Below are positions 8,255 through 29,576 of a DNA stretch of 64,000 nucleotides, one piece after another. Made by a program: the position numbers and the translations under genes. This DNA comes from Phage NC-B. The notes beneath the pieces were generated by a model that did no database searches, was not told the origin of the DNA, and worked only from the letters and a program-made list of their open reading frames with translations. Every line of letters starts with the position of its first letter. Within the stretch, counting starts at the first letter, position 1. The DNA is taken from the sequence record MK310183; one strand, given 5' to 3'.

Positions 8255-9286
8255 ATGGCTTATGGAATATGGTGTCAACCTGTAGGACCGGGACCAGCTT
8301 CCCCGGCTCCTCTCTTTATTGATAGCGGAAGTACTTTTCCTCAAATAAAAAATTCAATAAGTGGGAGTTTTAACTTTAATGGGGCTGGAAGGTCTTTTCC
8401 TATTAGCGGGTGGGATGGGAGTGGTCAGATAGTGATTGTACCAACAGGCTCTCTTTGTTGGCAATGGGAGGTTCCTCCTAACTTAATTCCTGATGTATAT
8501 TGTGTCAACAATATTTATGTAGAGAATAACACATCGTTCAGGGTTACATTAAATCAAAATCCGGGAAGCAACCCTTTGTTTGACTGTGGTTTCAATGTAT
8601 ATCAAATCTACCCAAGAGCTGATAGGAACTATGGAATAACCTTCTCTAATACAGCTGATTATTTCTCTATCTCAGATGCTGGGATTGTGGGTCAATGCAT
8701 CTGGGCTTGGCAAGGAACTATAAACAACGCTCTACAGATACCTGATATTGGTGGTTTCTATATGCCTAATGCTGTAGTTTTTGCTAACTGGTCTGATGGT
8801 GGTGTTGGTTTATCTTATACATCAGGAGATAGGGTGATTCGAGTTTATCAAAACAGGTCTTATAACAATGGCAACACTAATGAAGGTGGTTCTGTGTTTG
8901 CTAGGGTTGCTGTATTTTGTAATGGTGCTGGGGTTCCTGAACACAACGGCGGTTTAAATATATATTCTCCCGGAACTACTCAGTGCGTATTCTCTACTTA
9001 TAGGTCTCCTTTTACAGTAGACACTTTCGTAGGCTCAGCAGGTGGAAATACTGGCTTAGCTTATCCTATGATTCCTCTGTCTTCTGGAGTTGGAGCTATC
9101 AGAGGAAGTGGGAGTGGTTGGTATTATCAACAAATGCGTTCTCATACCATGTCAGGGTCTTCAATAGGAACTGGATATGGTAGATATATGTTCCAATGGT
9201 CTAACAGTTATGACTTAGGTTCTAATGCTGCTGTTAATATCTCCATCCCTGTAATCAACGCTGCTAAGATTTTTGCAGGTTTATGA
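8255..9286 (+). CDS. Virion structural protein (Gly/Asn-rich, probable tail component)
   Basis: AGGGAG RBS; 343 aa; 1-nt gap from upstream stop suggests translational coupling. Confidence 0.4.
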   Translation: MAYGIWCQPVGPGPASPAPLFIDSGSTFPQIKNSISGSFNFNGAGRSFPISGWDGSGQIVIVPTGSLCWQWEVPPNLIPDVYCVNNIYVENNTSFRVTLNQNPGSNPLFDCGFNVYQIYPRADRNYGITFSNTADYFSISDAGIVGQCIWAWQGTINNALQIPDIGGFYMPNAVVFANWSDGGVGLSYTSGDRVIRVYQNRSYNNGNTNEGGSVFARVAVFCNGAGVPEHNGGLNIYSPGTTQCVFSTYRSPFTVDTFVGSAGGNTGLAYPMIPLSSGVGAIRGSGSGWYYQQMRSHTMSGSSIGTGYGRYMFQWSNSYDLGSNAAVNISIPVINAAKIFAGL

Positions 9287-10105: not shown

Positions 10106-11158
10106 ATGTCTCTTTTCGGTTCTGCTCCTAAATCTAAGACTACGGTAGCTCCGTCTTCTCAGGTTGATGCTCTTCTGAAACAGATTGTAGCAAATGCTCA
10201 GGCTATGAATCAAAACGATCAAGGTTTTATTGGTCGTAACGTAGCGGGTTTTAATGAAAACCAAACAGCAGCTCTTTCTAATTTAGCAAATTCTAACACA
10301 CTCAACCAACTCAGTCAGATGTACACCCCTAGAACTCAACAAGGGTTGGACCAGATGAATGAGTTGGCTCAGAAATATCAAAACCTAGTTAATAAAGGTG
10401 GTATCACTGCTCAGGATGTTAATAATTTTAGCTCTGGATTGAATAGCTCTGCTTTAGCTAAGTCTACAGGTAAAGCTGCTGCTAATGTATCTCTTGGTAA
10501 TGGTTCTGATTCAGGTTCTCTTAGACGTGCTGCTGCTCAAGGTGCTGCTCTCTCTTCAGCGAATACAAACCTTTCTCGTTCTATTCAAGGTAAAAACATG
10601 GGTGTTAGCAATCTTATGAATAACAACTCCTATCAGCAAGGTTTGCTCAATGCTCAATCGGGTCTAGCAAATCAGAATCTGAATCTAGGAGCTGCTGGGG
10701 TACAAGCTGGTCAACAGGCAATACAGAATCAGCTCACTGCTGGGAATCTTCAACAACAGCAAGATCAACTCCAAGCTAACAACAATTGGGAGAATGCTAT
10801 TGGCAATCAGCAGTATGGTTGGAATCGGCTTAACAACCAGCTTAATGTATTAAACTCAGTAAGCCCAATGGCTGGGTACACCATTACTAACAAAGGTGCT
10901 GCCCCTAATGTTTCACAACAAATCCTTGGTGCTGGGGTTACTGGTCTTGGTATTGCTGGACGTCTAGGTGCTTTTACCCCTAATCAGCAAACTACTAATG
11001 CTTGGAACTCATACAATGCTTCTGGAGGTCAAGCTGGGATGGCTGGTCCTATGATTGGTGGCTCAAACCTGTCTCAACAGAATGGTCAGAGCAACTGGTT
11101 ATCTACCGCAGGAAGTAATATCTTAGGTGGTGTTCTAGGAGCCTTTGGAGCAAATTAA
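10106..11158 (+). CDS. Q/N/G-rich internal virion protein (paralog 1)
   Basis: AAGGAGG RBS; N-terminus MSLFGS..SKTT parallels the next gene. Confidence 0.45.
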   Translation: MSLFGSAPKSKTTVAPSSQVDALLKQIVANAQAMNQNDQGFIGRNVAGFNENQTAALSNLANSNTLNQLSQMYTPRTQQGLDQMNELAQKYQNLVNKGGITAQDVNNFSSGLNSSALAKSTGKAAANVSLGNGSDSGSLRRAAAQGAALSSANTNLSRSIQGKNMGVSNLMNNNSYQQGLLNAQSGLANQNLNLGAAGVQAGQQAIQNQLTAGNLQQQQDQLQANNNWENAIGNQQYGWNRLNNQLNVLNSVSPMAGYTITNKGAAPNVSQQILGAGVTGLGIAGRLGAFTPNQQTTNAWNSYNASGGQAGMAGPMIGGSNLSQQNGQSNWLSTAGSNILGGVLGAFGAN

Positions 11159-12150: not shown

Positions 12151-13818
12151 ATGCAACAAACTTCTTATGCGTATCTTCGCAGTCAAGACCCAAGAAATCA
12201 GATTTATGGTGTTAAACAAGGGGCCGCTTCGGCCTCTCCATACATGGCAAGACCTGCTTACCCAGCTGCTGATGTTTCAATGTATAGTCAGAGACCTCCT
12301 GCCTCTCCTGTAGGTTTATCCTCTCTTGTTGCTACTGCTCAAGAAGACCAAGAAGCTATGTTAAATCCGGGATTTAGGCAGCGCCTTATGGAAGCAGAGA
12401 ATCAAGGGACTCCTACAAGCCTTCAGGGTATTGATATTGGCGAACCAGCTCCTGCTATGAATAACCCAGATCTATCCTCTGATGAGGGTCTACAAGCTGC
12501 TGGGTTGATGCCTAGTGACCCACTTCCTGTTACTCCTCCTCGTAAACCTCTGGAAGAAACAGATAAAGAGTTCTCTCCAGTTCAGGTGGAACAGGCTCAG
12601 AATGTTATTAACACTTTAGCTAATAGTAATCCAGCTCCTGAAGGTATGGCTGGTGCAACTCGTGCTAAAGACCAAGAACGTATTAATAATGATATTATGG
12701 AAGTAGCTAAAGCTAAAGATCCAGCGCAAGCTTGGAATGAGCTTCAGAAGCAACCGTTCTACCAGAAGTCTAGTTTCTATACTGGCTTAATGGGTGTTGG
12801 TCTTTCTATCATGTCAGGTAAATCTCCTATTGAAGCTTTCCAGATTGGTTCTGGCTTAGCTGCTCAGGATGAAACTAAACAACAACTAGAAGCCAATCGC
12901 GATGCTCTGTTAGAACAAGGCTACTCTCAAGATTCAGTTGCTGCTGCAATTGCTTCGGGAGATCCTTCTCTTCTCAAGATGCGTCAGATGAGTCCTCAGG
13001 AGAAAATGGCTCTTGCTGCTCAGGATGAAGAACGTGCTAATCGTGAGTGGGATAGACGTCAACAGATTCAGGATCAATCAGTTCGTGAACGTGCTGCTGA
13101 GACTCGTCGTGCTGCTGAAGAACGTGCTGATGCACAATTTGCTAAACAGAAAGAGCTTATTGAATATCGTGATAAGGTTAAAGCAGACCGCGCTGAACAA
13201 GCTGCTCAGAGCTTCAACTTCAGTACGAAAGAGCTTCGTAACGTTCAGAATACTGCTGAAGGTTCTGTTGCTAAGCAGTGGGCAGAAAAAGCTGCTCTGT
13301 TTAAACAGTCTCATAAGGACTTGGATTTGGCAGATCAGGCTATTAAAGATAAAGACTACCAATCCGCTCGTACCGCTTACATGCAGGCTATTATGAACTC
13401 CGCAAGGGCAGAAATTGGTGCTAACCGTTCTCTCCAAGCTGATGACTTGGCCCACTTTGCAGAAGACCCATCAATCTTTGTTAAGGTTGGTAACACTTGG
13501 TCCCTTAAAGCAGGCTATCGTCCTTCTGATGCTGCTCTGTCATACGCTCGTAAGCAGGCAACTGTTGGTGCTTCTTCGGCTGACAAAGGTGTTCTGGAGT
13601 CTAAGAAATCAACTATTGATGCTTATGTGGGTTCTGGCATGAATAAGAAACGTGCAACAGCTTTGGTTAACCGTGGTATACCTTCTGGCGGTTTCTATGA
13701 CCCATACAAGACTTTTGATGCAGAAGCTGAAGAATCTGTTGGTGGAGATGCAACCAATCCTCGCTTAACAGGTGCTCTTTCTTCTTCAGCGGCAGATACG
13801 AGTTGGATGTTCCAGTAA
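12151..13818 (+). CDS. Internal virion protein (Pro/Ala-rich N-terminus, charged coiled-coil centre)
   Basis: AGGAGA RBS; 555 aa. Confidence 0.4.
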   Translation: MQQTSYAYLRSQDPRNQIYGVKQGAASASPYMARPAYPAADVSMYSQRPPASPVGLSSLVATAQEDQEAMLNPGFRQRLMEAENQGTPTSLQGIDIGEPAPAMNNPDLSSDEGLQAAGLMPSDPLPVTPPRKPLEETDKEFSPVQVEQAQNVINTLANSNPAPEGMAGATRAKDQERINNDIMEVAKAKDPAQAWNELQKQPFYQKSSFYTGLMGVGLSIMSGKSPIEAFQIGSGLAAQDETKQQLEANRDALLEQGYSQDSVAAAIASGDPSLLKMRQMSPQEKMALAAQDEERANREWDRRQQIQDQSVRERAAETRRAAEERADAQFAKQKELIEYRDKVKADRAEQAAQSFNFSTKELRNVQNTAEGSVAKQWAEKAALFKQSHKDLDLADQAIKDKDYQSARTAYMQAIMNSARAEIGANRSLQADDLAHFAEDPSIFVKVGNTWSLKAGYRPSDAALSYARKQATVGASSADKGVLESKKSTIDAYVGSGMNKKRATALVNRGIPSGGFYDPYKTFDAEAEESVGGDATNPRLTGALSSSAADTSWMFQ

Positions 13819-13843
13819 TCTAAGACCTAAGTCCTATCTCTTA

Positions 13844-13852
13844 TAATGTATA
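13844..13852 (+). promoter_or_regulatory. Candidate phage-sigma promoter element TAATGTATA
   Basis: Motif 36 nt upstream of ATG 13889; same motif recurs upstream of several minus-strand genes. Confidence 0.4.
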
Positions 13853-13888
13853 TAGGAGGTAGGACATTTTTATTTATAAGGAGACGTT

Positions 13889-16800
13889 ATGGCTAATTTA
13901 AAATCGTGGGAAGAAGCTTCCAAAGCTCCTGCGTATCTGAACGCCTCTCCAGAGCAACAGGCTCAAATGAGAGAACAATACAAGGCAGCAGGGGGCACTA
14001 TTCCTGAGACTCAACCACAAGAGCAACCACAACAAGAAGAACGAGGTGCTATTGGGGAGTTTGCTCAAGGTGTGTCTAACGCTCTTCAATCAGGTGGTGC
14101 TAACATTGCAGCTAGTGCTGCTAAAGGTTTAGGTGGGCTGGTAGAGATTGGTGAAAACTTAACTGGTTCAGAAACAAGCTATGGTAAGCGCATTCAAGAG
14201 AACTCTAAGCAATTGCTGGAAGAACGCTTATCCAAGATAGAAGACGGTTTTGGTAAAACAGCTGGTCAGTATGCTGGTGTTGCTGCTGATATTGGTTTGA
14301 CAGTTGCAAACCCTGCTGTTGCTGCTGCTGTTATCGCAGCTCGTGAAACAGGTCGTGCTTATGCTGATCAAACTCCTAAAGAAGATGAAGATAAGTCAGT
14401 CTTAGATGCTGCTCTTGTTGGTGGTGCTAACTACGCTGCTCAGAAGATACTTCCGGGCATGACTGGTACAGCTTCTACTACTCTTGGTCGTGTAGGACAA
14501 AGCGTAGCCTCTAACGCAGTTGCTGGTGCTAAGGGTGGTGCTATTGTTGGTGCTGCTGAAGCTCAGAACAAATATGGGGATGACACTACTCTAGCTAACG
14601 TATTAGAAGGGGCTATTGAAGAGGGTGCACTCGGTGCTGCTTATGGTGGGGCGATTGGTGGGGTTCATGGGTTAATAAGCCGTCCTAGCCCTCAAGTGTT
14701 TGATCGTACTCCTGAGCATGTTAAGACTGACATTGCTGCTGAAGATGAGGCTATTCGTAAAGCTGCTAACGCTGATGAACTTCGTGAAGCCTATGCTAAA
14801 GCTGAGAACGCTAATGCTGCCTCTGCTTTAAACCTTCTGGATGAAAATGGTTTCCGAATCACAGATGCAGTTGCTATGGACTCTCCTGCTGTTCAGCGTA
14901 TTTTAAATACAGACCAAAGCCGCGCTGAGAAGGCTGCTACGGTTCAGAAAGATAGCTCTAATGTTCCCGGTCTTAATCCTCTCGCTTCTCCTAAGAAGAC
15001 TCAAGGTAAAGCTTTTGCTGACAATGAGTACAACCAGAAACAAGCTGTGGCAATGAAAGATGCAATGGCTGACTACACTAAAGATAACACCAAAGCCCTT
15101 ACTGATGTTCTAGACAATCTAGACCGAGAGTTAGTAGCTCTGAGAGCAAGTGGTGATTTTACTGGTAGTACTATTGACATTAAAAACCGTACTCAAGCTG
15201 ATCGTGATTTTATTGATGCTTATAAAACTTTCTACAGCGAAGCTAATCGTTTCAAAGCTCGTGATGGTGAAGATCTAAACAACTTCATTGATAAAGCTAC
15301 TCAGTTGCAGAAGCTATCTGAGAATGTTTCTCCAGAGATGAAGAAGGCCATTGGTGGATTAAAGAAACTGAAAGGTATGCCTGAAGGTTTTAACCCTATT
15401 CAAGATGCTTTCACTCTGAATAATACAGCTAAGTTCATGAGTAACCAAGACCGTGGTTGGACCTCTCTGACTGATGATGGTTTTCGTGAAGCTCCGGCTC
15501 CTGTGCTAGTTAAGAACCCTCTCGGTGCAGCCAAGTATGTGCTTAATCGCTTTACTTCTGACCGTGCTCGTGCTCAACGTGAGAAGCAACAGTCAGCTAA
15601 TAGTGAAGCTATCCGCTCTTTGGCTAGGGCTGATTTAGAAGTACAACGAGCTAGGACTCAGGCTGAAGAAGCAAGAGCAAAAATGGAAGAAGAACCAACC
15701 ACAGAAGACATCAAATTCCGTACTCAAAATGATGCACCTTCCGAACCGGTTCGTGAGGAGCCTTCTGCTACTACTGTGACGGAAGAAATTCCTTCCTCTC
15801 CAGCTCCAACTGAAACACCTCTTACTGCGAGGGATTTAGTTGCTCAAAGACGTGCTATCCAACAAGCAGAGCTTAGACGTCAAGAAGCTGAAGCTGCTCA
15901 GGCTCAAGAAAGTGCTACACCAGAACCTGAACCACAGCAAGAAGCTCTTACAGCTAGAGAATTAGTAGCTCAGCGTAGGGCTGTAGCAGAGGCTAAGAAA
16001 CGTCAAGAGGCAGAGGAAGCAGAACGTGCTAAAGAAGCTCCTGAGGAAGCCGTAGAAGAGCCTAAAGAGAAACCTGAGCCATTACCTGCTCGTGCTCCTA
16101 AAGCTCCTGAGAAGGCTCCTGAGCCTGTTAAACCGTCCCTTGGTGTAGAACGTCTAGCTTCTATGTCAACTGCTGCTCGTCAAGCAACAAAAGACCGTGC
16201 TGATCGATTTGCTCGTTCTTTGTATTCGGCTGCTGCTAAAGCTAAAGCCACTGCGGAAAACTTCCTTTCTTACAAGGGAGATCCTAAAGAGCTTATGCGT
16301 CGTATCCGTCAGGAAGACCAAGCAAACAACACACAGCGTCATGAAGAGATGGCTAGAAACCAACTAGCTTCCCAGCAAGGCATTGCTTCTGCTAAATCTC
16401 AACATGTTCGTGCTTCTTTTGCTGATTGGGTGAAAGAACGTGGGTTGCCTTCTGATATTGCTACTAAGGCTTTACGGGCTGAAGAGAAAGGTTTAGGTGG
16501 GAACGTCACAAGTCTAGATTCACTGAAGCGAAGAGCTGAGCGTTTATATCAGAAACAAAGAGATGATGAGTTTGACCGTCTCTATCGAGAGGCTCTGGAA
16601 GAGAATAAAGCTTTTGATAAGAGAGATGCTCCTAAACTGGTAGACCAGAAGAAAGAGCTTCAGGATGAAATTGGTGCGTTGCTTGATGCTGAACCGTTAC
16701 GTCCTGCTCAGAAAGATGCTATGCGTAGGATTATGGAAGACTTCGTGGAGAGTAAGTTTAAATCTTCAGAGAAAGCTGGAAGGGTTGAGGCTTTGGAAGT

Positions 16801-18334
16801 TGGTCAGATGAAGGATGTGTGGGATGGGTTTATTAATACCTATAACCGAGAAGTTAACATGTTCAACAAGGCTAACAAGAATTCTCAATACGAAGCAGCA
16901 GCTAAACACTTGCAAGCACGTCAAGAACGTCTTGAGACGCTCCGTAACAGAGCTAAGGCTCGCAGTGATGCTAAGGCAGCCATGGAGGCTGAGAAGCAGT
17001 CCTTGGAGGCTATAGCGGCTCAGAAATCAGAGATAGAGAAGATGTTCAAAGAATTGCCTGAAAGTGTCAGAGAGGCTCAGGAAGGGCGTACTTTGAAACA
17101 GCTTGCTGCTCACCATGATAAGAACTCTCCAGTACCACCAGAGCGTTTCCGTAGTATCATTGAACGTATTCACAACGCTGAGAGTGATTACCTCGATCGA
17201 AAACGCCGTTTGACCGAAGCAGAGGAAGATGCTCGTGAAGCTAAGTGGAATAGGATGTATGAACAGGCTGAGGAAATGAACCGTAAGTTTGATATCGATG
17301 CTAGAGTGAAGAGAGATAAAGCTCTAAAGGAAGCTCAAGAACGAGAGAATGACTTAATGGCAGTTCAACGTCAGCGTGATGACATTCATAAGCGTTTAGT
17401 CAATACTCTGGAAGAGAAGGGAGTTTCTAGGGAAGATGCTGAAGCGTATGCTGGGTCTTACATGGATAATCGGTATGCTTTGTTAGAGAAACCAATGACT
17501 CCAGTGGAACATCAGAATGCTCGTGCTCGTATCGAATCTGACGTAGAGAAGTTTGTTAAGAAATACGAAACAGCTACTCCAATCGAAAGAGAGATTGCTA
17601 AGGCAACTGGTGATGCAGATGGGAAGGCTTCTGATCTGGATGCAGAAACAGCAAAAGCTATTGAAGATGCTCGTAAAGTGGATTCTGACTTTAAGAAACT
17701 TTTAGATGAAGAGAAGGAAATGGAGAAGATTCGTTCGGCTCTACCTGAAGATGAAAGATCTCAGGCGAACTCTGATATTCTGGAAAGTATCAAGAAACAG
17801 GAAGATGATTTTGCTAGCAAAGCAGAGAAAGCTTTTATTGAAGGGAAGGACTTGCAGGAGTTAGCGAGTGTTGCAGAAGTTCTAGATAGGGTTCATGGTG
17901 CAGACAAGGCTGGTAACAACCGTCGATTTGTACGTGCTCTACAGACTGCTGCCGAGAACAAGAAACGTTATGGGGATAATCCAGTGGCTTGGTTTAGTGC
18001 TGATGATTATTCTGCTATTGCGAAACTTGGTGCTGCTTCGGCAGGTGGTAACAAATCTCGAGCACTTGAGAAGATCTTTGGTTCTACAGCAGAACAAGCT
18101 AAAGGGAAACTTTTAGGGCGGGATGATGTAGCTAAGATTAGGCGTGTGATTGAAGCGAATCCTAATGTTAAGATTCCTTCTTACAAGACAACTACTAGAC
18201 AAGAGTACATGCAGTTCTTGGAGAAGTATAATGACGAGGGAGAGTTGAAAGTCAAACGTGGTTCTCTGTCTGACAAGTTGGAGAGAGGTAAGCGTCAAGC
18301 CAAACTCCGTGTTAGAGTTCGAGCTAAGGAGTAA
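13889..18334 (+). CDS. Large Ala/Glu/Lys-rich virion protein (internal core/ejection or tape-measure-like)
   Basis: AAGGAG RBS; 1481 aa, helical/charged with internal tandem repeat; last gene of the + strand block. Confidence 0.45.
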   Translation: MANLKSWEEASKAPAYLNASPEQQAQMREQYKAAGGTIPETQPQEQPQQEERGAIGEFAQGVSNALQSGGANIAASAAKGLGGLVEIGENLTGSETSYGKRIQENSKQLLEERLSKIEDGFGKTAGQYAGVAADIGLTVANPAVAAAVIAARETGRAYADQTPKEDEDKSVLDAALVGGANYAAQKILPGMTGTASTTLGRVGQSVASNAVAGAKGGAIVGAAEAQNKYGDDTTLANVLEGAIEEGALGAAYGGAIGGVHGLISRPSPQVFDRTPEHVKTDIAAEDEAIRKAANADELREAYAKAENANAASALNLLDENGFRITDAVAMDSPAVQRILNTDQSRAEKAATVQKDSSNVPGLNPLASPKKTQGKAFADNEYNQKQAVAMKDAMADYTKDNTKALTDVLDNLDRELVALRASGDFTGSTIDIKNRTQADRDFIDAYKTFYSEANRFKARDGEDLNNFIDKATQLQKLSENVSPEMKKAIGGLKKLKGMPEGFNPIQDAFTLNNTAKFMSNQDRGWTSLTDDGFREAPAPVLVKNPLGAAKYVLNRFTSDRARAQREKQQSANSEAIRSLARADLEVQRARTQAEEARAKMEEEPTTEDIKFRTQNDAPSEPVREEPSATTVTEEIPSSPAPTETPLTARDLVAQRRAIQQAELRRQEAEAAQAQESATPEPEPQQEALTARELVAQRRAVAEAKKRQEAEEAERAKEAPEEAVEEPKEKPEPLPARAPKAPEKAPEPVKPSLGVERLASMSTAARQATKDRADRFARSLYSAAAKAKATAENFLSYKGDPKELMRRIRQEDQANNTQRHEEMARNQLASQQGIASAKSQHVRASFADWVKERGLPSDIATKALRAEEKGLGGNVTSLDSLKRRAERLYQKQRDDEFDRLYREALEENKAFDKRDAPKLVDQKKELQDEIGALLDAEPLRPAQKDAMRRIMEDFVESKFKSSEKAGRVEALEVGQMKDVWDGFINTYNREVNMFNKANKNSQYEAAAKHLQARQERLETLRNRAKARSDAKAAMEAEKQSLEAIAAQKSEIEKMFKELPESVREAQEGRTLKQLAAHHDKNSPVPPERFRSIIERIHNAESDYLDRKRRLTEAEEDAREAKWNRMYEQAEEMNRKFDIDARVKRDKALKEAQERENDLMAVQRQRDDIHKRLVNTLEEKGVSREDAEAYAGSYMDNRYALLEKPMTPVEHQNARARIESDVEKFVKKYETATPIEREIAKATGDADGKASDLDAETAKAIEDARKVDSDFKKLLDEEKEMEKIRSALPEDERSQANSDILESIKKQEDDFASKAEKAFIEGKDLQELASVAEVLDRVHGADKAGNNRRFVRALQTAAENKKRYGDNPVAWFSADDYSAIAKLGAASAGGNKSRALEKIFGSTAEQAKGKLLGRDDVAKIRRVIEANPNVKIPSYKTTTRQEYMQFLEKYNDEGELKVKRGSLSDKLERGKRQAKLRVRVRAKE

Positions 18335-18341
18335 ACAAGAA

Positions 18342-18380
18342 AAGCCCCCAACCTGTAAAAAGGAAGGGGGCTTCTTTATT
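18342..18380. terminator. Hairpin terminator between convergent transcription units
   Basis: AAGCCCCC...GGGGGCTT 8-bp stem followed by CTTTATTT; lies between + gene ending 18334 and - gene ending 18440. Confidence 0.5.
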
Positions 18381-18439
18381 TCTAGATGTTAGAATCCATC
18401 AAATTCATCATACATCCCAATTTTCTTCTTCAAAGTCAA

Positions 18440-18706
18440 TCATAAAACCTCCCAATCATCTGCAAATAGATCACCTTGAGATGGAACCCATCCGGGCTGT
18501 ACAATACCTTGAGCATTCTTTAAAACCAGATGAGGGGCAATATAGAACTGACCTACAATATCAGCTTTTTCGTAAAGAGAACCCGGTAGAGCTTCTTCTA
18601 CTTCATAACCACCTGCTTTAAAGACAAACTGGTTTGCACCATTCCAACCAGAGCGAGTGACCTTTTTCCCTTCTTTTACTTTAATAAGCGCTGAACTAAA
18701 ATCCAT
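18440..18706 (-). CDS. DUF2829-family protein (Tad2-like candidate anti-Thoeris sponge)
   Basis: AGGAGA RBS; 88 aa; pattern F..AL...KEGKKV.R.GWNG ... GW.PSQ.DL.A.DWE.L matches DUF2829 as recalled. Confidence 0.5.
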   Translation of the reverse strand: MDFSSALIKVKEGKKVTRSGWNGANQFVFKAGGYEVEEALPGSLYEKADIVGQFYIAPHLVLKNAQGIVQPGWVPSQGDLFADDWEVL

Positions 18707-18714
18707 TTGTTCTC

Positions 18715-19014
18715 CTAGATTAAATCATAATACTTAATAATATCGGAGAGCTTAAACTCTCGAATGTCATTCTTGTCGTTGTCCCAAGCGGTCATTATCC
18801 AACAAGGTTTGCCCCCATTATGATAACGGGAAGAAGCAACTGAGGTTCGTAAAGGAATAACGGAGCGGTCTGCAATTTCACCTCTCCAATTACGATAGCT
18901 AAAACGAAGAGTTTGTGTCGTAGATACTTGATCATTTGTGCTTTCCTTGTTCATGGATTCAAAGACTTCCTTTTCTTCAGGAGTCTCTAGATTTTTTAAA
19001 TTCACGTCTTGCAT
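18715..19014 (-). CDS. Hypothetical protein
   Basis: ATG with AAAGAGGA RBS; 99 aa. Confidence 0.45.
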   Translation of the reverse strand: MQDVNLKNLETPEEKEVFESMNKESTNDQVSTTQTLRFSYRNWRGEIADRSVIPLRTSVASSRYHNGGKPCWIMTAWDNDKNDIREFKLSDIIKYYDLI

Positions 19015-19381
19015 CGTTTTCCTCTTTAGTTTTTATCTTATGGCAAGGCTCTTTGCATAAGACTTGAAAACCATCTTTCTCAACTAAAGCCCTCTCGATG
19101 ATTTCATCCCAAGTAGCTTCATGGTCCACTGGAACAATAGGCTTTATATGGTCTACTGCTACGTCTTTAAGAGGAGAATCATTACCACACATGGCGCACT
19201 TGTAATGCATTGCCAGTTTGCCAGTTTTAGGGTTGATTTTACGTTCTGTCTGAGCCTCTTTGAGAGAATCAAACATAGGTTTCCATTTCCTAGTCAGAGA
19301 ACGAATCCCTGACTTAATGAAGGAGTTATAACGTGCTTCAGTCCACTGACCAGAGCATCTTGTCTTCTCAGCTTTCGCCAT
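18977..19381 (-). CDS. HNH endonuclease
   Basis: Cys pairs flanking VDHIKP...H...H motif typical of HNH nucleases; 134 aa. Confidence 0.5.
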   Translation of the reverse strand: MAKAEKTRCSGQWTEARYNSFIKSGIRSLTRKWKPMFDSLKEAQTERKINPKTGKLAMHYKCAMCGNDSPLKDVAVDHIKPIVPVDHEATWDEIIERALVEKDGFQVLCKEPCHKIKTKEENDARREFKKSRDS

Positions 19382-19559
19382 AACCTACATCCATATCAGC
19401 ATCTTCCCAAATGCGTTTATTGACTCGGTGTGATTCTTTATCAGCACGAGGGATACGACCTGTGCGACGATCAAATGCTTGGTGCTTAATCTTTTGATCT
19501 TTACGAGATTCACGAGTAGAGAAGTTTTCATCATACGAACGATAGTCAAATTTACCCAT
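19368..19559 (-). CDS. Hypothetical small basic protein
   Basis: ATG start; 63 aa, Arg/Lys-rich. Confidence 0.35.
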   Translation of the reverse strand: MGKFDYRSYDENFSTRESRKDQKIKHQAFDRRTGRIPRADKESHRVNKRIWEDADMDVGYGES

Positions 19560-19569
19560 TATAATATCC

Positions 19570-20391
19570 TTATTCCCAAGTTTTATCTAACCATGACCAA
19601 TCAAAGAGGTCACCTTCAGCTTGTCCAACGAAGAGCAATCGAGCGTTTTCTAACATCTTATCTTCTGCTTCTTCCTCGAACCTCTTATAGTATTCCATTC
19701 GTATAATATGATAAAGAGTCCACTTATCGAATACCTTCTCAATAAGTTTGATTGCAGCCTTGCTACCAATGCCTTTACGACGCATTACTAGATTGCCACC
19801 CCATATCATTTCAACCTTCTCACCACATCCGGGAATGTTATCTGTGCTATCCCCGATCAGCATCTGGTAGAAGAAGTTCTGCCATGCTACTTCCTCTGGT
19901 ACATAGTGAGGAGGTACTTCTTTCTGTCTCTCCCCGCAAGCCCAACGGTAATGCCATCCGGGGGTGATTAACAAATCTTTATCACGGGTGCAAATGATAG
20001 TGTTCTTATCACGTCTCTGTCTTTCAGCTAAGGCATCATCTGCCTCTCTCCCAAAAACTTCAACGAATTCATAATTCTCTTTAATGTAATCGCTGACATT
20101 TTGCCAGTGGTGAGGTCTTTCTCCCGGTGGTCGATTAGCTTTATAACCTTGCTGCTTAGCAATATCAAACCGAAAATTACCACCTTCGCTGAAGTAAAAG
20201 ATTGTTTTCTCGCAACCAGACCTTGCAATGATTACATCTATTTTATGTTGAAGTCGTTCAATCAAGAATCCATAATCAACTGGAACACGACCTGTGTCTA
20301 GAAAAGGATGCTCTTGTGTAAGAGCACCGACTTCATATCGCAGAACATCTGCATCTACAATTGCTACTTCCGGATAGATTACATCAGACAT
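19570..20391 (-). CDS. 5'-3' exonuclease / flap endonuclease (FEN, T7 gp6 / T5 D15-like)
   Basis: ATG at 20391 with GGAGAGG RBS and ATGTCTGA overlap with upstream stop; motifs GYKANR, DDALA, IPGCGEK. Confidence 0.6.
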   Translation of the reverse strand: MSDVIYPEVAIVDADVLRYEVGALTQEHPFLDTGRVPVDYGFLIERLQHKIDVIIARSGCEKTIFYFSEGGNFRFDIAKQQGYKANRPPGERPHHWQNVSDYIKENYEFVEVFGREADDALAERQRRDKNTIICTRDKDLLITPGWHYRWACGERQKEVPPHYVPEEVAWQNFFYQMLIGDSTDNIPGCGEKVEMIWGGNLVMRRKGIGSKAAIKLIEKVFDKWTLYHIIRMEYYKRFEEEAEDKMLENARLLFVGQAEGDLFDWSWLDKTWE

Positions 20392-20980
20392 AGAGACCTC
20401 TCCGTGTCCCTTCAATAATCCACTCCAAATCCTCCACTGCCTCTTCTACAGAACGGTCGTTAAAGAGGAGATAGGTTGGTAGATTTGTTCCTTCAATATA
20501 AGAACGAGAGTCCCCTTCAAAGGAGCAGCCATCTCGGAGAATCTGAACTACTCGAACATGGAAGTGTTTCTCTAGTTCTTCAACTTCTGCTTTAAATCCA
20601 CCATCAGAGAAGACGATAACATCATTCTGTGATGGGATACGTTGTTGAATATTGCTAACAGCAAGTTTACCCATGCAGGTCTCACCAAACATGGGCTTCA
20701 GATAGTTCTCACTAGTTGCAATCATCAAGTCTCGAACTGACTTACCGTCCCATTCAGGACGGCTATGTTCTTTCCACTCACGATCGTTGTACAGCTCCAT
20801 GAACTCATAAAGAGGTAGACCTAATGCAGCAGCAGCCACTCGATACATAGGCTCCTTAAAAGCCTTTACATGCGGCCTAAACTCGGTGTTACCAAGTGTT
20901 TTCTCTAACCAAGAATTAGCGATTGTGTCTTTACCACAACCCGGTGGTCCATTCAGAATTACTACTAATGGTTTACTCAT
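20384..20980 (-). CDS. P-loop nucleotide kinase (dNMP kinase-like)
   Basis: Walker A GPPGCGKDT near N-terminus; 198 aa; TAATG coupling with upstream gene. Confidence 0.5.
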   Translation of the reverse strand: MSKPLVVILNGPPGCGKDTIANSWLEKTLGNTEFRPHVKAFKEPMYRVAAAALGLPLYEFMELYNDREWKEHSRPEWDGKSVRDLMIATSENYLKPMFGETCMGKLAVSNIQQRIPSQNDVIVFSDGGFKAEVEELEKHFHVRVVQILRDGCSFEGDSRSYIEGTNLPTYLLFNDRSVEEAVEDLEWIIEGTRRGLYV

Positions 20981-21630
20981 TATTGAATCATCCCTTGAAG
21001 ATCTTCTTTATCAAAGTGCTTCTCTACTACCGCTTCATACAGATCACGATTCTCTGAATAACGACGATAGAAGGTTCCGTGTGAAATTCCCAACTCTTGC
21101 TGGATGTGATCATGTGGGATGCCGAGAAAGAGCATTGAGAACATGCTTGCCATCTTACGGTTTTCCATAATGTCACTCAGGTCTTGGAAGAAGAAAAAGA
21201 TTCTAGATTCCAAGAACGGATCTCCAGTAGAATCATGCTTATCCATCGCAATCTCTAAAGGACTTTCCCATGAATTCATCTCAGGAGGTCTAAACATATC
21301 AGCCTCTGGAATAGAGTAGATACGTCGGTCTCCAACTGTCTGACGATTAGAACGAATCGACCAGATGATATTCTTGACACGATAAGTCATGTGCTCAATA
21401 TCTTTTTCATCAGTGAGCAGAAGTTCTTCTTGCTTTGCAAACACAAAACGCCAAGCGTTCAGTAATACTTCCTGAGCAACATCCTCTGCCTCGTGATAGT
21501 CTTTAATGTCATACATAAAATACTTATGCACAACTTTCCAGTTCTCTCGATAAAATTCATCGAAGGTTGGATAATATTTAATAGGTATGCCATGAATACG
21601 ATAGCGTGTGGGTGTTGTCTTTTTCTTCAT
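20980..21630 (-). CDS. Sigma-70 family (ECF-like) RNA polymerase sigma factor
   Basis: AAGGA RBS; region-2-like [12 protein letters not shown] and region-4-like [20 protein letters not shown]. Confidence 0.5.
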
Positions 21631-21654
21631 AAGTCGTCCTTAACTTACTTTACA

Positions 21655-21879
21655 TTAAACTACACAGAATAAATACATTGCTGTATCAGGACAAGGGATG
21701 GCTGTCTGAATGCCACTTACTTTAATCCACATATCCTCTTCAGAGTCATAATAAGCCCAATAGGACTGATCTCCATCTACAAAGAATTTAAAGGTTCGTC
21801 CCCAAACCTGATTATTGTATTCCCATACTGCATGAAGCTGAGTAACACCTTCTGGTATTGTAAGTTCCGCTCTGATCAT
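21655..21879 (-). CDS. Hypothetical protein
   Basis: ATGA overlap with upstream stop; 74 aa. Confidence 0.4.
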   Translation of the reverse strand: MIRAELTIPEGVTQLHAVWEYNNQVWGRTFKFFVDGDQSYWAYYDSEEDMWIKVSGIQTAIPCPDTAMYLFCVV

Positions 21880-22136
21880 TGTATTCCTCTCTCCTTGAGA
21901 GCTTTAAGCAAACCGTTGTGGTTAGCGGCACAGGTTGTATAATTGTCCTGATACCACTCGAGTGTTGTTGCAAGTGCTACTCCCTGTCCACTCTGAAGTA
22001 AAGGGAGGTCTACATCACATTCAGCTTTTAGGTTTGTTGGTAAGGGCATTAGCTGCCTGCTGTTGTCGCTCGTTGAACAAGCTGACATACTCATCACTAG
22101 CACACACATTGTAAAAAACTGGCTTAGTCTTTTCAT
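21876..22136 (-). CDS. Outer-membrane spanin (Rz1-like lipoprotein)
   Basis: Signal peptide with MSAC lipobox, Pro-rich mature region; 5' end overlaps the i-spanin gene in another frame. Confidence 0.5.
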   Translation of the reverse strand: MKRLSQFFTMCVLVMSMSACSTSDNSRQLMPLPTNLKAECDVDLPLLQSGQGVALATTLEWYQDNYTTCAANHNGLLKALKERGIQ

Positions 22137-22368
22137 AATGCATCTCTTTGTAAATAGTTTCCGTGTTCTTCTTCCAGTTTGATAAACCAGTCAGAACTTT
22201 CTGAGCCACTTCATCAGCAGCCTTAGCTCTCTCAATCTCAATCTCTTGCTGTTTCTTCTCTTGGTCAAGAGCATTGCTGTCATTTCGATATTGCTCAAAC
22301 TTGACACCACCAAAGAAAATCAGAGCTGTGAAGATTAAAAAACCTATATTGTTTTGAAGCTTTTCCAT
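22021..22368 (-). CDS. Inner-membrane spanin (Rz-like)
   Basis: ATG at 22368 with GGAG RBS (track start is GTG inside the terminator); N-terminal TM helix then charged coiled coil. Confidence 0.5.
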   Translation of the reverse strand: MEKLQNNIGFLIFTALIFFGGVKFEQYRNDSNALDQEKKQQEIEIERAKAADEVAQKVLTGLSNWKKNTETIYKEMHYEKTKPVFYNVCASDEYVSLFNERQQQAANALTNKPKS

Positions 22369-22384
22369 TTTAACTCCAACGAAA

Positions 22385-22408
22385 AAAGCCACCCGAAGGT
22401 GGCTAAGC
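22385..22408 (-). terminator. Rho-independent terminator
   Basis: Minus-strand AGCCACC-TTCG-GGTGGCT hairpin followed by TTTTTT. Confidence 0.6.
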
Positions 22409-22426
22409 TATTACAAGGAGAGATTC

Positions 22427-23167
22427 TTAGAATGGAGAGTCATCCTCTTCAAAGGTTGATTGCGGCTCTTCATTAATGGTAGGGATGCTTGGAGTAGCAT
22501 CTTTCTGTTCAGTGTCAGAAGCTTTAGTAACTTCACGACCAGCCAGAGGGATATTCTTAGCATCGTTAGCTTGAGTCAAGAGGTTACGTTGGAATGGGAA
22601 GATTGCTTGATAAGCAGCTAAGTTAGCGTCAGTCTCAGCATACGGTTCGAAGAAGATCAACTCACTACGAGGAGCACCTACCGCGTCACGATATTTAGTC
22701 GGGATTGGAGTGATGCTTTTAATGGAGTTTTTCTTCTCACCAGCTTTGTTTACATAGGAATTAACCAGAATGTTAACAGGCTGACCTAACAGCATATCTT
22801 TAAACCAACCCAAATCACCTTTCAGTGCTTGAACACTTGGGTCGATCATTTTAATCAGATTTAGAATACCAGAGTTCTTAGCTCGTGGATTTACATCGAA
22901 AGATTTAAACTGGCAAGCAGGACGAGGGTCCAGAGGTTTGCCTTCATTATCAGTCCCTGTTGCATCTACGCCAATCAGCTCAAAAGCTAAGTCCATACGG
23001 AAAGCTGGATTCTTAGGAGTAACTGCTTTGGTTTTAGGGTCAATCCAAGGGTCACGATTGTGAACACCCAAACCTACAACACGAACAATACGTGCTTCGT
23101 ACTCACCATCAGGGATTACATTGTAGTTGGATTTACGGGATACAGACAGTTCAGGGATCATAGACAT
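22427..23167 (-). CDS. ssDNA-binding protein (T7 gp2.5-like)
   Basis: 246 aa; acidic C-terminal tail ending EEDDSPF as in SSB C-termini. Confidence 0.45.
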   Translation of the reverse strand: MSMIPELSVSRKSNYNVIPDGEYEARIVRVVGLGVHNRDPWIDPKTKAVTPKNPAFRMDLAFELIGVDATGTDNEGKPLDPRPACQFKSFDVNPRAKNSGILNLIKMIDPSVQALKGDLGWFKDMLLGQPVNILVNSYVNKAGEKKNSIKSITPIPTKYRDAVGAPRSELIFFEPYAETDANLAAYQAIFPFQRNLLTQANDAKNIPLAGREVTKASDTEQKDATPSIPTINEEPQSTFEEDDSPF

Positions 23168-23226
23168 ATTAATATTTCCTTATATAGATTTAAGATTGTT
23201 GCTCTCTTTGAGCGGTTTGTATACTA

Positions 23227-23235
23227 TATACATTA
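23227..23235 (-). promoter_or_regulatory. Candidate phage-sigma promoter element TAATGTATA
   Basis: Minus-strand motif ~60 nt upstream of SSB start. Confidence 0.35.
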
Positions 23236-23297
23236 CACTTATACAGATAAGGTTCTATTATACTATAACCTTTTTGGTAGTAGATAATGACAAGTAG

Positions 23298-23306
23298 TAA
23301 TGTATA
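23298..23306 (+). promoter_or_regulatory. TAATGTATA motif on + strand with no + strand gene downstream
   Basis: Exact motif, divergent from the minus copy 70 bp away. Confidence 0.25.
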
Positions 23307-23500
23307 TATGGTATAGCTAGTAAAGCTATTGCAGGCTTGTATATTGGGCAATCATTGTAACCCTTGCAAGTACCGAAGGGCAGGAGACACCTGCGAGATA
23401 AAAATAGAGAATTAAGGAAATCCTTGATTTAGGTTGAGGACTCCTAGGACTTTGATTCTCTATTAAAATCAAAAGAAAACTTAACTTAAAACAATAACTT

Positions 23501-24121
23501 CTACCATTCTAAAAGACCTTTAAAACTAGTTTGTTCTACTGTTCTCTGATAAGGTAAGTTAGATTCTGCTTGTTTGCTTAACATCTCTTGTACTTTATCA
23601 GTAATTGGATAATCTTTTTGTAATAAAGAAGCTATCCACTCTTTCCTACTTTCCAGTTCTTTTCTAATCTCTTGCAGAGACACAGCTTTGTAATCAATTT
23701 GTTCCATAGAGGTACAAAAATATCTCCAATCTTTGATAGTAGAGTTATGAGTATGAGCATAGATATTATACTTTCCTCTCATTTCATCAGAGTGAATAGG
23801 AATATGAGTTACCCAAAATTCTTTGTATTTATAATCACCACTGATGTGTCTAAAGACTTTCATCATATCAGGGAGAAGTTCTAATCTGTCATGATTTCCT
23901 AAGACAAGATGTTTCTCTCCCTTTACTTCAGCGATAATATCAAGTGCATATTTCTCAAACACCCAATCACCTGTAAAGAAAGTTTTATCACGTTTAGTAA
24001 CATGGTCGAACGCTGCTAAGATAGCTTTGTCATGTTCTTCAATACTACTAAACTTCTTTCTAAAATTACAGATGTTACGATGGCCTAGGTGACCATCACC
24101 TGCAAAATAAACTTCAGCCAT
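23501..24121 (-). CDS. Metallophosphoesterase (calcineurin-like phosphatase)
   Basis: ATG at 24121 coupled by ATGGCTGA overlap; motifs GDGHLGH, GDWVF, GNHD. Confidence 0.55.
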   Translation of the reverse strand: MAEVYFAGDGHLGHRNICNFRKKFSSIEEHDKAILAAFDHVTKRDKTFFTGDWVFEKYALDIIAEVKGEKHLVLGNHDRLELLPDMMKVFRHISGDYKYKEFWVTHIPIHSDEMRGKYNIYAHTHNSTIKDWRYFCTSMEQIDYKAVSLQEIRKELESRKEWIASLLQKDYPITDKVQEMLSKQAESNLPYQRTVEQTSFKGLLEW

Positions 24122-24281
24122 TCTCGTATGTGTCCTCATAATATGAGTAGTTGAAGGATTCAGCTTTCGTTTCAGCCTCCTCCATATCGTCTGTTTCCAG
24201 AATCACTTTCCAGCCAGAACCTTCAGGATACTCAGCCCCTTCGTCTAGCCAGACTTTATACCGTTTAGATAGTGCAACCAT
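24114..24281 (-). CDS. Hypothetical small acidic protein (paralog of 24849-25028)
   Basis: Shares motif K.Y.VW..E......GW.VIL.TD..EEAE with 24849-25028. Confidence 0.35.
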   Translation of the reverse strand: MVALSKRYKVWLDEGAEYPEGSGWKVILETDDMEEAETKAESFNYSYYEDTYENG

Positions 24282-24468
24282 CGCAGATATAATCTCCACT
24301 CAAGGATTCTTGTAAGAGACGAGATTGCTCATCGGCATACAAAGCATCAATTTCTTCCTTGAGCTTTGCAAGCTCTACAAAGTTGATAAGTTGCCCATAA
24401 TCTGTCGCATCTGTGATAAATTGAAACAAACCTGTCGCATCATTTTTAATAATATATTCATTAGACAT
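24265..24468 (-). CDS. Hypothetical protein
   Basis: ATG start; 67 aa. Confidence 0.35.
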   Translation of the reverse strand: MSNEYIIKNDATGLFQFITDATDYGQLINFVELAKLKEEIDALYADEQSRLLQESLSGDYICDGCTI

Positions 24469-24692
24469 TATAGCAACTCCCTTTGTTTACTGTTGATAAC
24501 AGTCATCGCTGTTACTGGGTTGTTTGTTCCAAGATATTCTAGAACAGAGACACCCTTAGTCGGTTTATCAGCCTCTATGTAATTCTTAACCTTGCCACCA
24601 AGAACCGCTAGAGAAGCCTGAGCTTCTGCTTCATCAGTATGAACTCGGTCAACTGTTTTCTTTCCAATCGTGTAAGTGTGAACGTAAATCAT
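24468..24692 (-). CDS. Hypothetical protein
   Basis: ATG start; TAATG coupling; 74 aa. Confidence 0.4.
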   Translation of the reverse strand: MIYVHTYTIGKKTVDRVHTDEAEAQASLAVLGGKVKNYIEADKPTKGVSVLEYLGTNNPVTAMTVINSKQRELL

Positions 24693-24874
24693 TTAACTTC
24701 CTCAATATCGACTAATTCAAAACTTCCTATTTCTTCAAGTTTGATAATCTCTTTAACCTTCTCAACAGCTTTAATAGGGTTTTCTTCTTCTACAACTTTA
24801 CACCCTGACACTTCAAGACTTCCTGTTCCACGAAGGTATAAATTTAACTTATAAACTACTTTGTAGTATTTCAT
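24689..24874 (-). CDS. Hypothetical protein
   Basis: ATG at 24874 with GGGAG RBS (track start 24895 lacks RBS). Confidence 0.35.
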   Translation of the reverse strand: MKYYKVVYKLNLYLRGTGSLEVSGCKVVEEENPIKAVEKVKEIIKLEEIGSFELVDIEEVK

Positions 24875-25028
24875 CGTGCTCCCAATTTCTTTCATAATAT
24901 CCAGAGTTGTAGTTTAGGGCGCATTTCTCGGCCTCTTCTATGTTGTCTGTGTTTAGGATATTAACCCAACCACCAACTTCATCAAAACCCTCTTCTTCTT
25001 CATTAAACCATACGCTGTATTTCTTCAT
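24849..25028 (-). CDS. Hypothetical small acidic protein (paralog of 24114-24281)
   Basis: ATG at 25028; track start is TTG at 25049. Confidence 0.35.
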   Translation of the reverse strand: MKKYSVWFNEEEEGFDEVGGWVNILNTDNIEEAEKCALNYNSGYYERNWEHDEILQSSL

Positions 25029-25200
25029 CTTGATAAGACTCTCCCCCAATCCTTGATGTAACAGCGACCGTCAACCCACTTGGTCTCTGATTTAAACTCT
25101 TTTGAGATTCGAGTCTCGCAATCTTCTTTACTGTAATCTCCAAGAGCATCCATCGCCCAAAGAAACAGAGCAATTACAATAGACCAGATTAGAAACTTCT

Positions 25201-25593
25201 TCATCGTATCACCAGAGGCTCTTCAGAGTATACAGGAGAGGCTATTTCTACCGGAGGTGCTGCTCTAAGGTCATTAAGCCTTACGCCCTTCAGCATACCA
25301 TCTAGGTGGTCCATTTTAGGGATACCTACAGGGAAGTCATCAATCCAAACATCCACAAAGAAACCCAAGCTCTGGGTGACGGAATCCTTCTGAACACCGT
25401 TGCAAAAGATAACAGGAATATCTAGACTTGCTGCATCTGCTAGAAGCTCCTCATTTGAATACCCATTGGGTTGAGCAAAACGATAGGTGACAATACGTAC
25501 ATCATGTCCACGAGATTTCATAAGACCTACAATGTGGGTCCACATCTCTTTGTCCACTGTAAAAGTATCATCATAATCTAAACCAATATTCAT
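25201..25593 (-). CDS. HAD-superfamily phosphatase/nucleotidase-like protein
   Basis: AAGAGG RBS; N-terminal GLDYDDT (DxDxT-like) and later VWIDDF motifs. Confidence 0.4.
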   Translation of the reverse strand: MNIGLDYDDTFTVDKEMWTHIVGLMKSRGHDVRIVTYRFAQPNGYSNEELLADAASLDIPVIFCNGVQKDSVTQSLGFFVDVWIDDFPVGIPKMDHLDGMLKGVRLNDLRAAPPVEIASPVYSEEPLVIR

Positions 25594-25609
25594 ATTAGCC
25601 TCTTAGACA

Positions 25610-25632
25610 AGAAAAGCCACCCGAAGGTAGCT
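25610..25632 (-). terminator. Rho-independent terminator/attenuator
   Basis: Minus-strand AAGCTACC-TTCG-GGTGGCTT hairpin followed by T-rich tract. Confidence 0.5.
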
Positions 25633-25877
25633 TATTTATTCTGTGTTTCCAGTTCGCTGATACGAACTTTCAAACCGTTAATCTCAGCCTGAGCAGCTTC
25701 TAGTTTAATTAGAGCTTCTTCAGCGTCAGCTTCTGTTTGAAGAACCGCAGTGGTTAGTTCGTATAAAGCTTGGCGGAGAGAGTCTTTGCCCATAGCATGA
25801 ATCTGTGCAACAAAGAATTGCTTACCTTCCGTGGTTTCCAAAGTCTCTTTTAATTCTTTAGATGTTAAAGTCATCAT
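25632..25877 (-). CDS. Hypothetical coiled-coil protein
   Basis: AAAGGGAG RBS; 81 aa, helical heptad-like sequence. Confidence 0.45.
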   Translation of the reverse strand: MMTLTSKELKETLETTEGKQFFVAQIHAMGKDSLRQALYELTTAVLQTEADAEEALIKLEAAQAEINGLKVRISELETQNK

Positions 25878-26044
25878 TACTCCCTTTCATAAATTTTAAG
25901 AACTGTACCGCCATCTGCTTCAATCTGAGCAACTACTTCATCGCGCTCTTCATCAGAATAAACCAGTTGGTTGTGAAATTTGCCTGTACTATCTTGGAAA
26001 TATACATTCCATTTTGGAGCAGGTTTACGAATCAAATCCATCAT
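25877..26044 (-). CDS. Small ORF (55 aa) absent from the ORF track
   Basis: GAGGAG RBS; stop overlaps downstream start (TAATG). Confidence 0.3.
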   Translation of the reverse strand: MMDLIRKPAPKWNVYFQDSTGKFHNQLVYSDEERDEVVAQIEADGGTVLKIYERE

Positions 26045-26232
26045 TGATCTTTCTCCTCTCGTTCAACCCATGTACGGAAAAGCTCCCCATACACTTTGGC
26101 ATCATCAAAACGTCCTTCTTCCTGTGCGAGTTTTTGTTGCTTCAAGCACCATTCAGAACTTTTTACTTCTTCCACTTCCTTGTCTCCTTAAAAAGAACTA
26201 ATCAATAAGACTAGTTCATTTCGTAATACGAT

Positions 26233-26424
26233 TCAGCTCTTCCACGGGAGGTTGATGGTTAAATTCTTAATGGAGAAATCTTTATCAGGAAACTCTTCCA
26301 TTAACTCAGCCGCTTCTTGAATAGCTTTTCTTTCTGTGTTATAGATGCAGAAATGTCCATTACAGCAAACAATTGCATCTTTTGCTCCCGTAATGGCCCA
26401 TGTTTCATGTACATGTCTAGTCAC
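26233..26424 (-). CDS. Hypothetical Cys-containing small protein
   Basis: GTG start 4 nt after GGAGGA RBS; 63 aa. Confidence 0.35.
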   Translation of the reverse strand: MTRHVHETWAITGAKDAIVCCNGHFCIYNTERKAIQEAAELMEEFPDKDFSIKNLTINLPWKS

Positions 26425-26441
26425 TATTCCTCCACTACAAA

Positions 26442-28286: not shown

Positions 28287-28302
28287 CACCCACTCCTTAT
28301 AG

Positions 28303-28656: not shown

Positions 28657-28659
28657 AAC

Positions 28660-28917: not shown

Positions 28918-28918
28918 A

Positions 28919-29170: not shown

Positions 29171-29196
29171 ATTTATTACCTTAGGTTCTATAAAAG

Positions 29197-29222
29197 AAAA
29201 GGCCACCCGAAATGGGTAGCCT
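29197..29222 (-). terminator. Rho-independent terminator
   Basis: Minus-strand GGCTACCC-ATTTC-GGGTGGCC hairpin followed by TTTTCTTTT. Confidence 0.5.
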
Positions 29223-29226
29223 TATA

Positions 29227-29541: not shown

Positions 29542-29576
29542 CATAACTCCTTAATATATCAGTGTACACTAAGGAG

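Follow-up and report, generated by a model that had tools for sequence, protein, structure and literature searches.

In the podophage phiEco32, the phage-encoded sigma factor gp36 uses six promoters that share a single conserved element, tAATGTAtA, with transcription starting 6-8 bp 3' of it, and that precede genes 6, 13 and 26 (late) and genes 40, 58 and 68 (middle), according to the published descriptions (Lavysh et al. 2022, PMC8948821; for the gene assignments also PMC4331800 and PMC12276001). Supplementary Table S3 of the former work gives the individual elements (TAATGTAgA for P6, TAATGTATA for P13, P26, P40 and P58, and aAATGTATA for P68) and reports the six promoters to be conserved in phages NJ01, ECBP2, KBNP1711, SU10 and 172-1 (PMC8948821). 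These promoters are transcribed by the Escherichia coli core RNA polymerase associated with gp36 and helped by gp79: the gp36 holoenzyme transcribes them in vitro, and sigma70-dependent transcription is shut off by gp79. The open complex of E. coli RNA polymerase with gp36, gp79 and P68 has been solved by cryo-EM (Xu et al. 2025, PMC12276001; PDB 9m7y). The AATG bases occupy positions -14 to -11, AATGTA being centred at -11.5, and are read by gp36 residues E79, H80, Y83, R84, W90, S91, S94 and N95, while Y186 and R187 of the gp36 C-terminal domain contact A-34 and G-37 in the P68 complex (PMC12276001). In the same study, gp79 was found to displace sigma70, to make the gp36 open complex more stable, and to raise transcription from P26 and P68 3- to 4-fold (PMC12276001).

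The DNA considered here is a stretch of 64 kb from Phage NC-B (record MK310183), hereafter the window, which sequence comparison assigns to a phiEco32-like podophage of the Gordonclarkvirinae. A 10.5-kb stretch around the finding matched 100 phage records, nearly all of them Escherichia phages of the Gordonclarkvirinae, with Bas87 (96.4% identity) and IME267, HC-25922 and SU7 (about 96%) as best matches, and the phiEco32-type Kuraviruses at about 75-80%. The window is collinear with phiEco32 (NC_010324), a window position corresponding approximately to the phiEco32 position minus 12,170, and extends from within the tail-fibre gene phi32_15 to the right genome end, with late structural genes on the plus strand up to 18,334, and middle and early genes on the minus strand from 18,440 to 63,122. 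The GC-skew profile follows gene orientation only, with a switch at about 18.4 kb, and is uninformative on an origin near 23.3 kb. Relatives used for conservation checks were GenBank phage records, and some seeming gaps in the phiEco32-type alignment rows are alignment artefacts; a scan of IMG/VR with a conserved 26-mer returned three contigs only (NJ01, phiEco32 and KBNP1711). Elsewhere in the window, a tRNA gene lies at 53065-53137 on the minus strand (Rfam RF00005, 71.9 bits), where phiEco32 carries a tRNA-Arg, and two long ORF-free stretches of the early region (59441-60761 and 61002-61322) are the counterpart of the gene-free gap between phi32_124 and phi32_125, in which the SU10 paper placed strong early sigma70 promoters.

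Both protein partners of the phiEco32 system have homologues in the window:

20980-21630, minus strand: phage sigma factor (gp36 homologue), 80% identical to phiEco32 gp36 over its full length
40443-40685, minus strand: gp79 homologue, 76% identical to phi32_79

The first of these had been described as an ECF-like sigma factor in a sequence-only reading of the window, and its identity as a gp36 homologue is confirmed: the product matches chain F of PDB 9m7y, gives a weak Sigma70_r2 match, and is 100% identical to the sigma factor of IME267. All the published contact residues that read AATG (E79, H80, Y83, R84, W90, S91, S94 and N95) are unchanged, and Y186/R187 of gp36 are kept as Y188/R189.

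The same reading had proposed that a recurrent TAATGTA(T/A)(A/G) motif marks promoters of this sigma factor, and listed seven sites. A motif-like word is indeed found at all of them within 1 nt (the one placed at 63414 really starts at 63413), and the list was incomplete, as two further words, at 23298 and 21649, match the same pattern. The words are as follows:

13844-13852, plus strand: TAATGTATA, P26 orthologue (late), aligned to phiEco32 26014-26022, upstream of phi32_26
23227-23235, minus strand: TAATGTATA, P40 orthologue (middle), aligned to phiEco32 36632-36640, upstream of phi32_40
29577-29585, minus strand: TAATGTATA, P58 orthologue (middle), aligned to phiEco32 42937-42945, upstream of phi32_58
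33712-33720, minus strand: AAATGTATA (variant), P68 orthologue (middle), aligned to phiEco32 46862-46870
23298-23306, plus strand: exact TAATGTATA, orphan promoter candidate, previously unlisted, predicted +1 at 23313
21649, minus strand: TAATGTAAA, previously unlisted
45625, minus strand: TAATGTAGA (variant)
50491, minus strand: TAATGTAAG
63413-63421, plus strand: TAATGTAAG, intergenic, about 390 bp from the right genome end and pointing across it

How far the frequency of the motif exceeds expectation depends on how strictly it is defined. The pattern TAATGTAWR has seven matches in the window (13844+, 21649-, 23227-, 23298+, 29577-, 50491- and 63413+) against 3.1 expected, a weak enrichment reached by 2 of 100 shuffles (P = 0.02-0.06 under Markov models), and since about three matches are expected, about three of those observed are probably noise. 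Enrichment is clear for the strict word TAATGTATA, with four copies against 0.5-0.8 expected, and all five copies of WAATGTATA lie in non-coding DNA, which makes up about 10% of the window. The bare core AATGTA shows no enrichment (41 against about 40-44 expected). In an unbiased tally of 8- and 9-mers common to different non-coding regions, the top recurrent words are overlapping pieces of AATGTATATA; no consistent context was found for the other recurrent non-coding words TAGATGTTA, AGGGGCTTA and TTTAAGAAT.

Four of the words align base for base with phiEco32 P26, P40, P58 and P68 and are co-oriented with the orthologous genes. The late one (P26) precedes the start codon of the gene for a 1481-aa virion protein (13889-18334) by 36 nt, and the middle ones precede the start codon of a 246-aa gene (22427-23167, P40) by 59 nt, gene 29227-29544 (P58) by 32 nt and gene 33343-33672 (P68) by 39 nt, so that the spacing of 20-60 nt to a start codon given in the initial description holds for these four, whereas the words at 45625 (15 nt) and 50491 (10 nt) lie closer and the one at 63413 has no gene downstream within the window. 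The word at 33712 even shares the A at position 1 that is specific to P68 in Table S3. Taking the published numbering (AATG at -14 to -11), which puts the start about 7 bp after the 9-mer, transcription is predicted to begin at 13859(+), 23220(-), 29570(-) and 33705(-). The two other phiEco32 promoters, P6 and P13, belong to the region upstream of the window, and are present in SU7 at 1597 and 9013.

Wherever the region is present in phiEco32, Bas87, SU7, Paul, SR02, TH34, PE006 and TH38, these 9-mers never vary while their flanks differ: the four words are unchanged in 7-14 relatives, in which the flanking sequence is 75-90% identical. The P26 word is unchanged in phiEco32, Bas87, SU7, Paul, SR02, PE006 and TH38, the P58 word in Bas87, SR02, TH34, TH38 and PE006, and the P40 word in all relatives examined. 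Upstream, the P68 orthologue carries the element TTGGTAGTAGATA at 33744-33732, which provides G-37 and A-34, and the P58 orthologue has GGAA at -37 to -34 (29607-29604). These contacts are defined on P68 only. Both bases are found at 33712, 23298, 29577 and 63413, and at 23227 only with a 1-bp shift, while 13844 has AAGACC; the incomplete match at the latter two sites is a point against their reading as gp36 promoters. As a separate observation, the late promoters P13 and P26 have a common upstream word at identical spacing, TAAGACCTA-N14-TAATGTATA (13820-13828 on the plus strand here; 8990-8998 in SU7), and TAAGACCTA in late P13/P26 and TTGGTAGTAGATA in middle P68 and the orphan copy may represent class-specific upstream elements.

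The remaining words (21649, 45625, 50491 and 63413) differ from the 9-bp element tAATGTAtA at positions 8 or 9, and the first three of them do not correspond in position to the promoters of phiEco32 genes 26, 40, 58 or 68. The word at 21649, which immediately precedes the sigma gene, is replaced by TAATATAAA in Bas87 and TH34, with loss of the essential G-11; the one at 50491 reads TAATTTAAG in TH34; and the one at 45625, located inside the upstream ORF, is kept in TH34 and becomes TAATATTAC in phiEco32 and TH38. The -35-like bases (G-37/A-34) are absent at all three. As candidate gp36 promoters, 45625 and 50491 were rejected on non-conservation together with the missing upstream element, and 21649 because its word is broken in close relatives and lacks -35-like bases. 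The closeness of 45625 and 50491 to a start codon is no argument against them, because in phiEco32 no more than 11 nt separate P6 from the annotated start of its gene. These three words are most likely chance matches, judging from their sequences and from their number, which fits chance expectation.

Could all the words, then, have arisen by chance in a genome rich in AT and lack a function? Enrichment of the loose pattern is no more than about two-fold (seven against about three), its AATGTA core is not enriched, and 21649, 50491 and 45625 behave as chance hits, being changed in relatives and devoid of -35-like bases. However, the five copies of WAATGTATA combine enrichment of the strict word with confinement to the roughly 10% of non-coding DNA and invariance amid varying flanks, and four of the five occupy the exact orthologous positions of experimentally mapped promoters, which makes chance a scarcely credible explanation for them.

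A second possibility is that the motif is a variant -10 region for the host sigma70 holoenzyme and not a signal for the phage sigma. At several sites, the TAAT bases of the motif are shared with a hexamer that resembles a sigma70 -10 element (TATAAT at 13842-13847, CATAAT at P58, TGTAAT at P40), a generic scan found a weak 9/12 sigma70-like site (CTGAAA-16-TATACT) overlapping P58, and in the SU10 paper it was suggested that sigma70 may read middle promoters as well. Against this, a sigma70 consensus scan of 13000-32999, looking for a TTGACA-like -35 and a TATAAT-like -10 separated by 16-18 bp, listed none of the motif sites apart from the weak match at P58, and none of the five sites otherwise scores with a usable -35; the invariant bases G-11, T-10 and A-9 fall outside the sigma70 hexamer, so that sigma70 would not constrain them; and in phiEco32 it is the gp36 holoenzyme that transcribes these promoters in vitro, while gp79 shuts sigma70 transcription off. 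Recognition by the host holoenzyme is thus very unlikely.

Very probably, the motif serves as the -10-like element in promoters that the sigma factor encoded by this phage (20980-21630) recognises. The computations made here establish the identity and conservation of the sequences, their orthologous positions, and that both the sigma factor and its co-factor are encoded; transcription by a gp36-type holoenzyme, start distance and temporal class are transferred from the phiEco32 literature, whose gp36 differs from the present sigma at 20% of residues, and would by analogy be the same here. In such a scheme, the host sigma70 holoenzyme would express the early genes first, and the phage sigma would then bind the E. 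coli core RNA polymerase, with the gp79 homologue (40443-40685) displacing sigma70 and stabilising the open complex, the function attributed to gp79 itself (PMC12276001). The phage holoenzyme would recognise AATGTA at -14 to -9 and start about 7 bp after the 9-mer, using the late promoter at 13844(+) and the middle promoters at 23227(-), 29577(-) and 33712(-), in front of the homologues of genes 40, 58 and 68. The initial proposal of phage-sigma promoters is thereby borne out at these four sites, which hold the positions of phiEco32 P26, P40, P58 and P68 in a phage that encodes both sigma and gp79, and finds no support at 45625 and 50491, 63413 being an ambiguous case.

Three of the four promoters lie within significant hairpins whose 5' arm is upstream of the predicted start. 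At P26, a terminator scan detected the following structure:

13831-13865, plus strand: terminator-like 15-bp hairpin with T-run, -22 kcal/mol, z = -4.0

The motif lies in the loop and upper stem of this hairpin, of which phiEco32 retains every pair via one-sided G-U changes, and since the predicted +1 (13859) falls within the 3' arm, the hairpin would form only in transcripts arriving from upstream. At P58, a stem (29545-29577 on the minus strand, z = -3.6) is formed by the ribosome-binding site AAGGAGU and the segment ACUCCUU, which overlaps the end of the motif by its first base and is removed from the P58 transcripts by the predicted start at 29570. At P68, the stem (33677-33725 on the minus strand, z = -3.4) joins GAGAG of the ribosome-binding site to a CUCUC immediately 5' of the motif, and no such structure was found at P40 (fold z = -0.3). 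This arrangement suggests that read-through transcripts would be terminated (P26) or translationally masked (P58 and P68), promoter-initiated ones being spared; no such coupling between hairpins and promoters was found in the accessible phiEco32 papers.

The presence of hairpins at three of the four sites (terminator-like at P26, an anti-Shine-Dalgarno stem at P58, CUCUC-GAGAG at P68) could also mean that the words are conserved as parts of RNA or DNA hairpins, such as terminators or translational operators, and not as promoters. Nevertheless, the place of the 9-mer differs between the structures (loop, stem edge or unpaired), the word is equally invariant at P40, which has no hairpin, and structure alone would permit compensatory change where the 9-mer never varies. 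Conservation for structure alone is therefore hard to believe, and the hairpins are better read as a layer added to promoters of the phage sigma, separating read-through from promoter-initiated transcripts.

The copy of TAATGTATA at 23298(+) lies 62 bp from P40, is oriented away from it, is antisense to the flanking genes, and has no co-oriented gene. It is preceded by the P68-type element TTGGTAGTAGATA at 23274-23286, at exactly the P68 spacing (TTGGTAGTAGATA-N12-TAATGTATA), with G-37 and A-34 in place. phiEco32 carries the same copy at 36704(+), and no change in the site is seen in 14 relatives, among them ES17 and SDYTW1, in which the spacer and flanks have diverged and a 120-bp insertion separates this copy from P40, both elements and their spacing being kept. 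Conserved elements at a fixed spacing around a free spacer make 23298(+) promoter-like, and with both promoter elements it most likely serves the phage sigma as well. It is absent from the six published phiEco32 promoters, and no description of it was found in the accessible literature. Downstream of it lies the following block:

23313-23468, plus strand: conserved non-coding block that would be transcribed from the candidate promoter at 23298

Its mean column identity to phiEco32 is 91%, against about 75-78% in the flanks, and no credible ORF and no Rfam family (at the gathering or E-value threshold) was found in it. In the predicted plus-strand RNA, a central domain is flanked by a 6-bp hairpin at the 5' end and by a long stem-loop with a 15-bp helix at the 3' end. 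Across relatives, both partners are changed in three pairs of the 5' hairpin, and a G-U pair of this hairpin, as well as those of the 15-bp helix, form only on the plus strand, where the fold z is -2.9 (-2.3 on the minus strand). Read on the minus strand, the 3' stem precedes a T-run and could act as a terminator of the upstream operon. Taken together, it is conceivable, if somewhat less probable than the contrary, that 23298(+) is a genuine gp36 promoter without a gene, producing a structured plus-strand RNA of at least about 150 nt which is antisense to the early-to-middle junction and could have a regulatory or antisense role, or activate a replication origin, and at the same time that gp36 promoters are embedded in hairpins so that only promoter-initiated transcripts escape termination or masking.

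The word at 63413(+) is of a different kind. It has GGAA at -37 to -34 and is kept in Bas87, Bas88, UKE3 and TH34, the identity of the region being 84-87% in Bas88 and TH34, and locally about 96-97% in Bas87 and UKE3. On the other hand, the consensus is not kept at -8 and -7, the phiEco32 lineage has no equivalent of the site, and the word overlaps the repeat AACGGGTAGGGTAT, the last unit of the first of two GGGTAGG arrays; a TATAAT hexamer there lacks both a -35 (CGGGGA being found at this place) and a TG extension. It is possibly a clade-specific promoter, or else part of the terminal GGGTAGG repeat array. The repeats themselves, (A/T)(C/T)GGGTA(G/A)G, form two arrays (63313-63409 and 63786-63894), all on the plus strand and spaced by about 28-30 bp, which flank position ~63806, where the linear records of SU7 and UKE3 end, and may serve in packaging or replication or as targets of a regulator. 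Another observation concerns TAATGTATT at 10843-10851 (+), with GGAA at -37 to -34, inside a DNA-ejection-protein gene (10106-11158): this sequence is found again in phiEco32 at about 23028, and may be an internal promoter or reflect the conservation of coding sequence.

If the orphan promoter or the promoter-hairpin coupling were confirmed, the temporal-control model of phiEco32 could be refined, and the orphan promoter with its structured block represents a modest new lead. Homology allows the annotation of middle and late transcription units in this phage lineage, which matters for SU7, IME267 and related BASEL phages, of interest in therapy, whose genome papers overlooked the sigma factor and the promoters. 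The SU7 genome paper recognised neither, and the 'promoter' features of the SU7 record are generic BPROM/PhagePromoter predictions that leave the motif unmarked.

The late promoters of Salmonella phage 7-11 also depend on a phage-encoded sigma factor (gp47), in the same phage group and at similar genome positions (PMC8948821), but their consensus is bipartite (GTAAtg-N16-aCTA) and unrelated to the motif described here, and a published search did not find tAATGTAtA promoters in 7-11 or GAP52 (PMC8948821). The 7-11 sigma matches only 19-28% of the present one, at 44-54% identity. The latter is annotated as ECF-like, with sigma2-like and sigma4-like domains, as in the bacterial ECF (group 4) factors. 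Promoters of bacterial ECF (group 4) sigma factors are of the -35 'AAC' / -10 'CGT' type. In gp36-type promoters, in contrast, one extended -10-like element dominates, the -35 contact is weak and degenerate, and gp79 is needed as a dedicated co-activator. The four sites fit neither sigma70 promoters, nor the bipartite 7-11 type, nor classical ECF promoters.

By comparison, the phiEco32 gp36 promoters P26, P40, P58 and P68 (Pavlova et al. 2012, cited after PMC8948821; PMC12276001) share with these sites the same 9-mer, gene neighbourhood and orientation, and the P68 variant with its upstream element, the sigma factor (80%) and gp79 (76%) are all matched in this phage. The difference is one of lineage, phiEco32 being a Kuravirus and the present phage belonging to the Bas87/IME267/SU7 lineage (Suseptimavirus-like), in which the promoters are predicted from sequence. 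The similarity to a phiEco32 middle/late consensus, which the sequence-only reading had put forward tentatively, was correct, tAATGTAtA being the published element of the gp36 promoters. The finding is already known in kind, three of the sites first listed being false or doubtful and one having been missed; at the level of sequence, the four sites agree with the gp36 promoter family of phiEco32 in their 9-mer, position, orientation and encoded sigma factor and gp79, and in part in the -35 contact bases, so that a known system has been correctly recognised again in a close relative.
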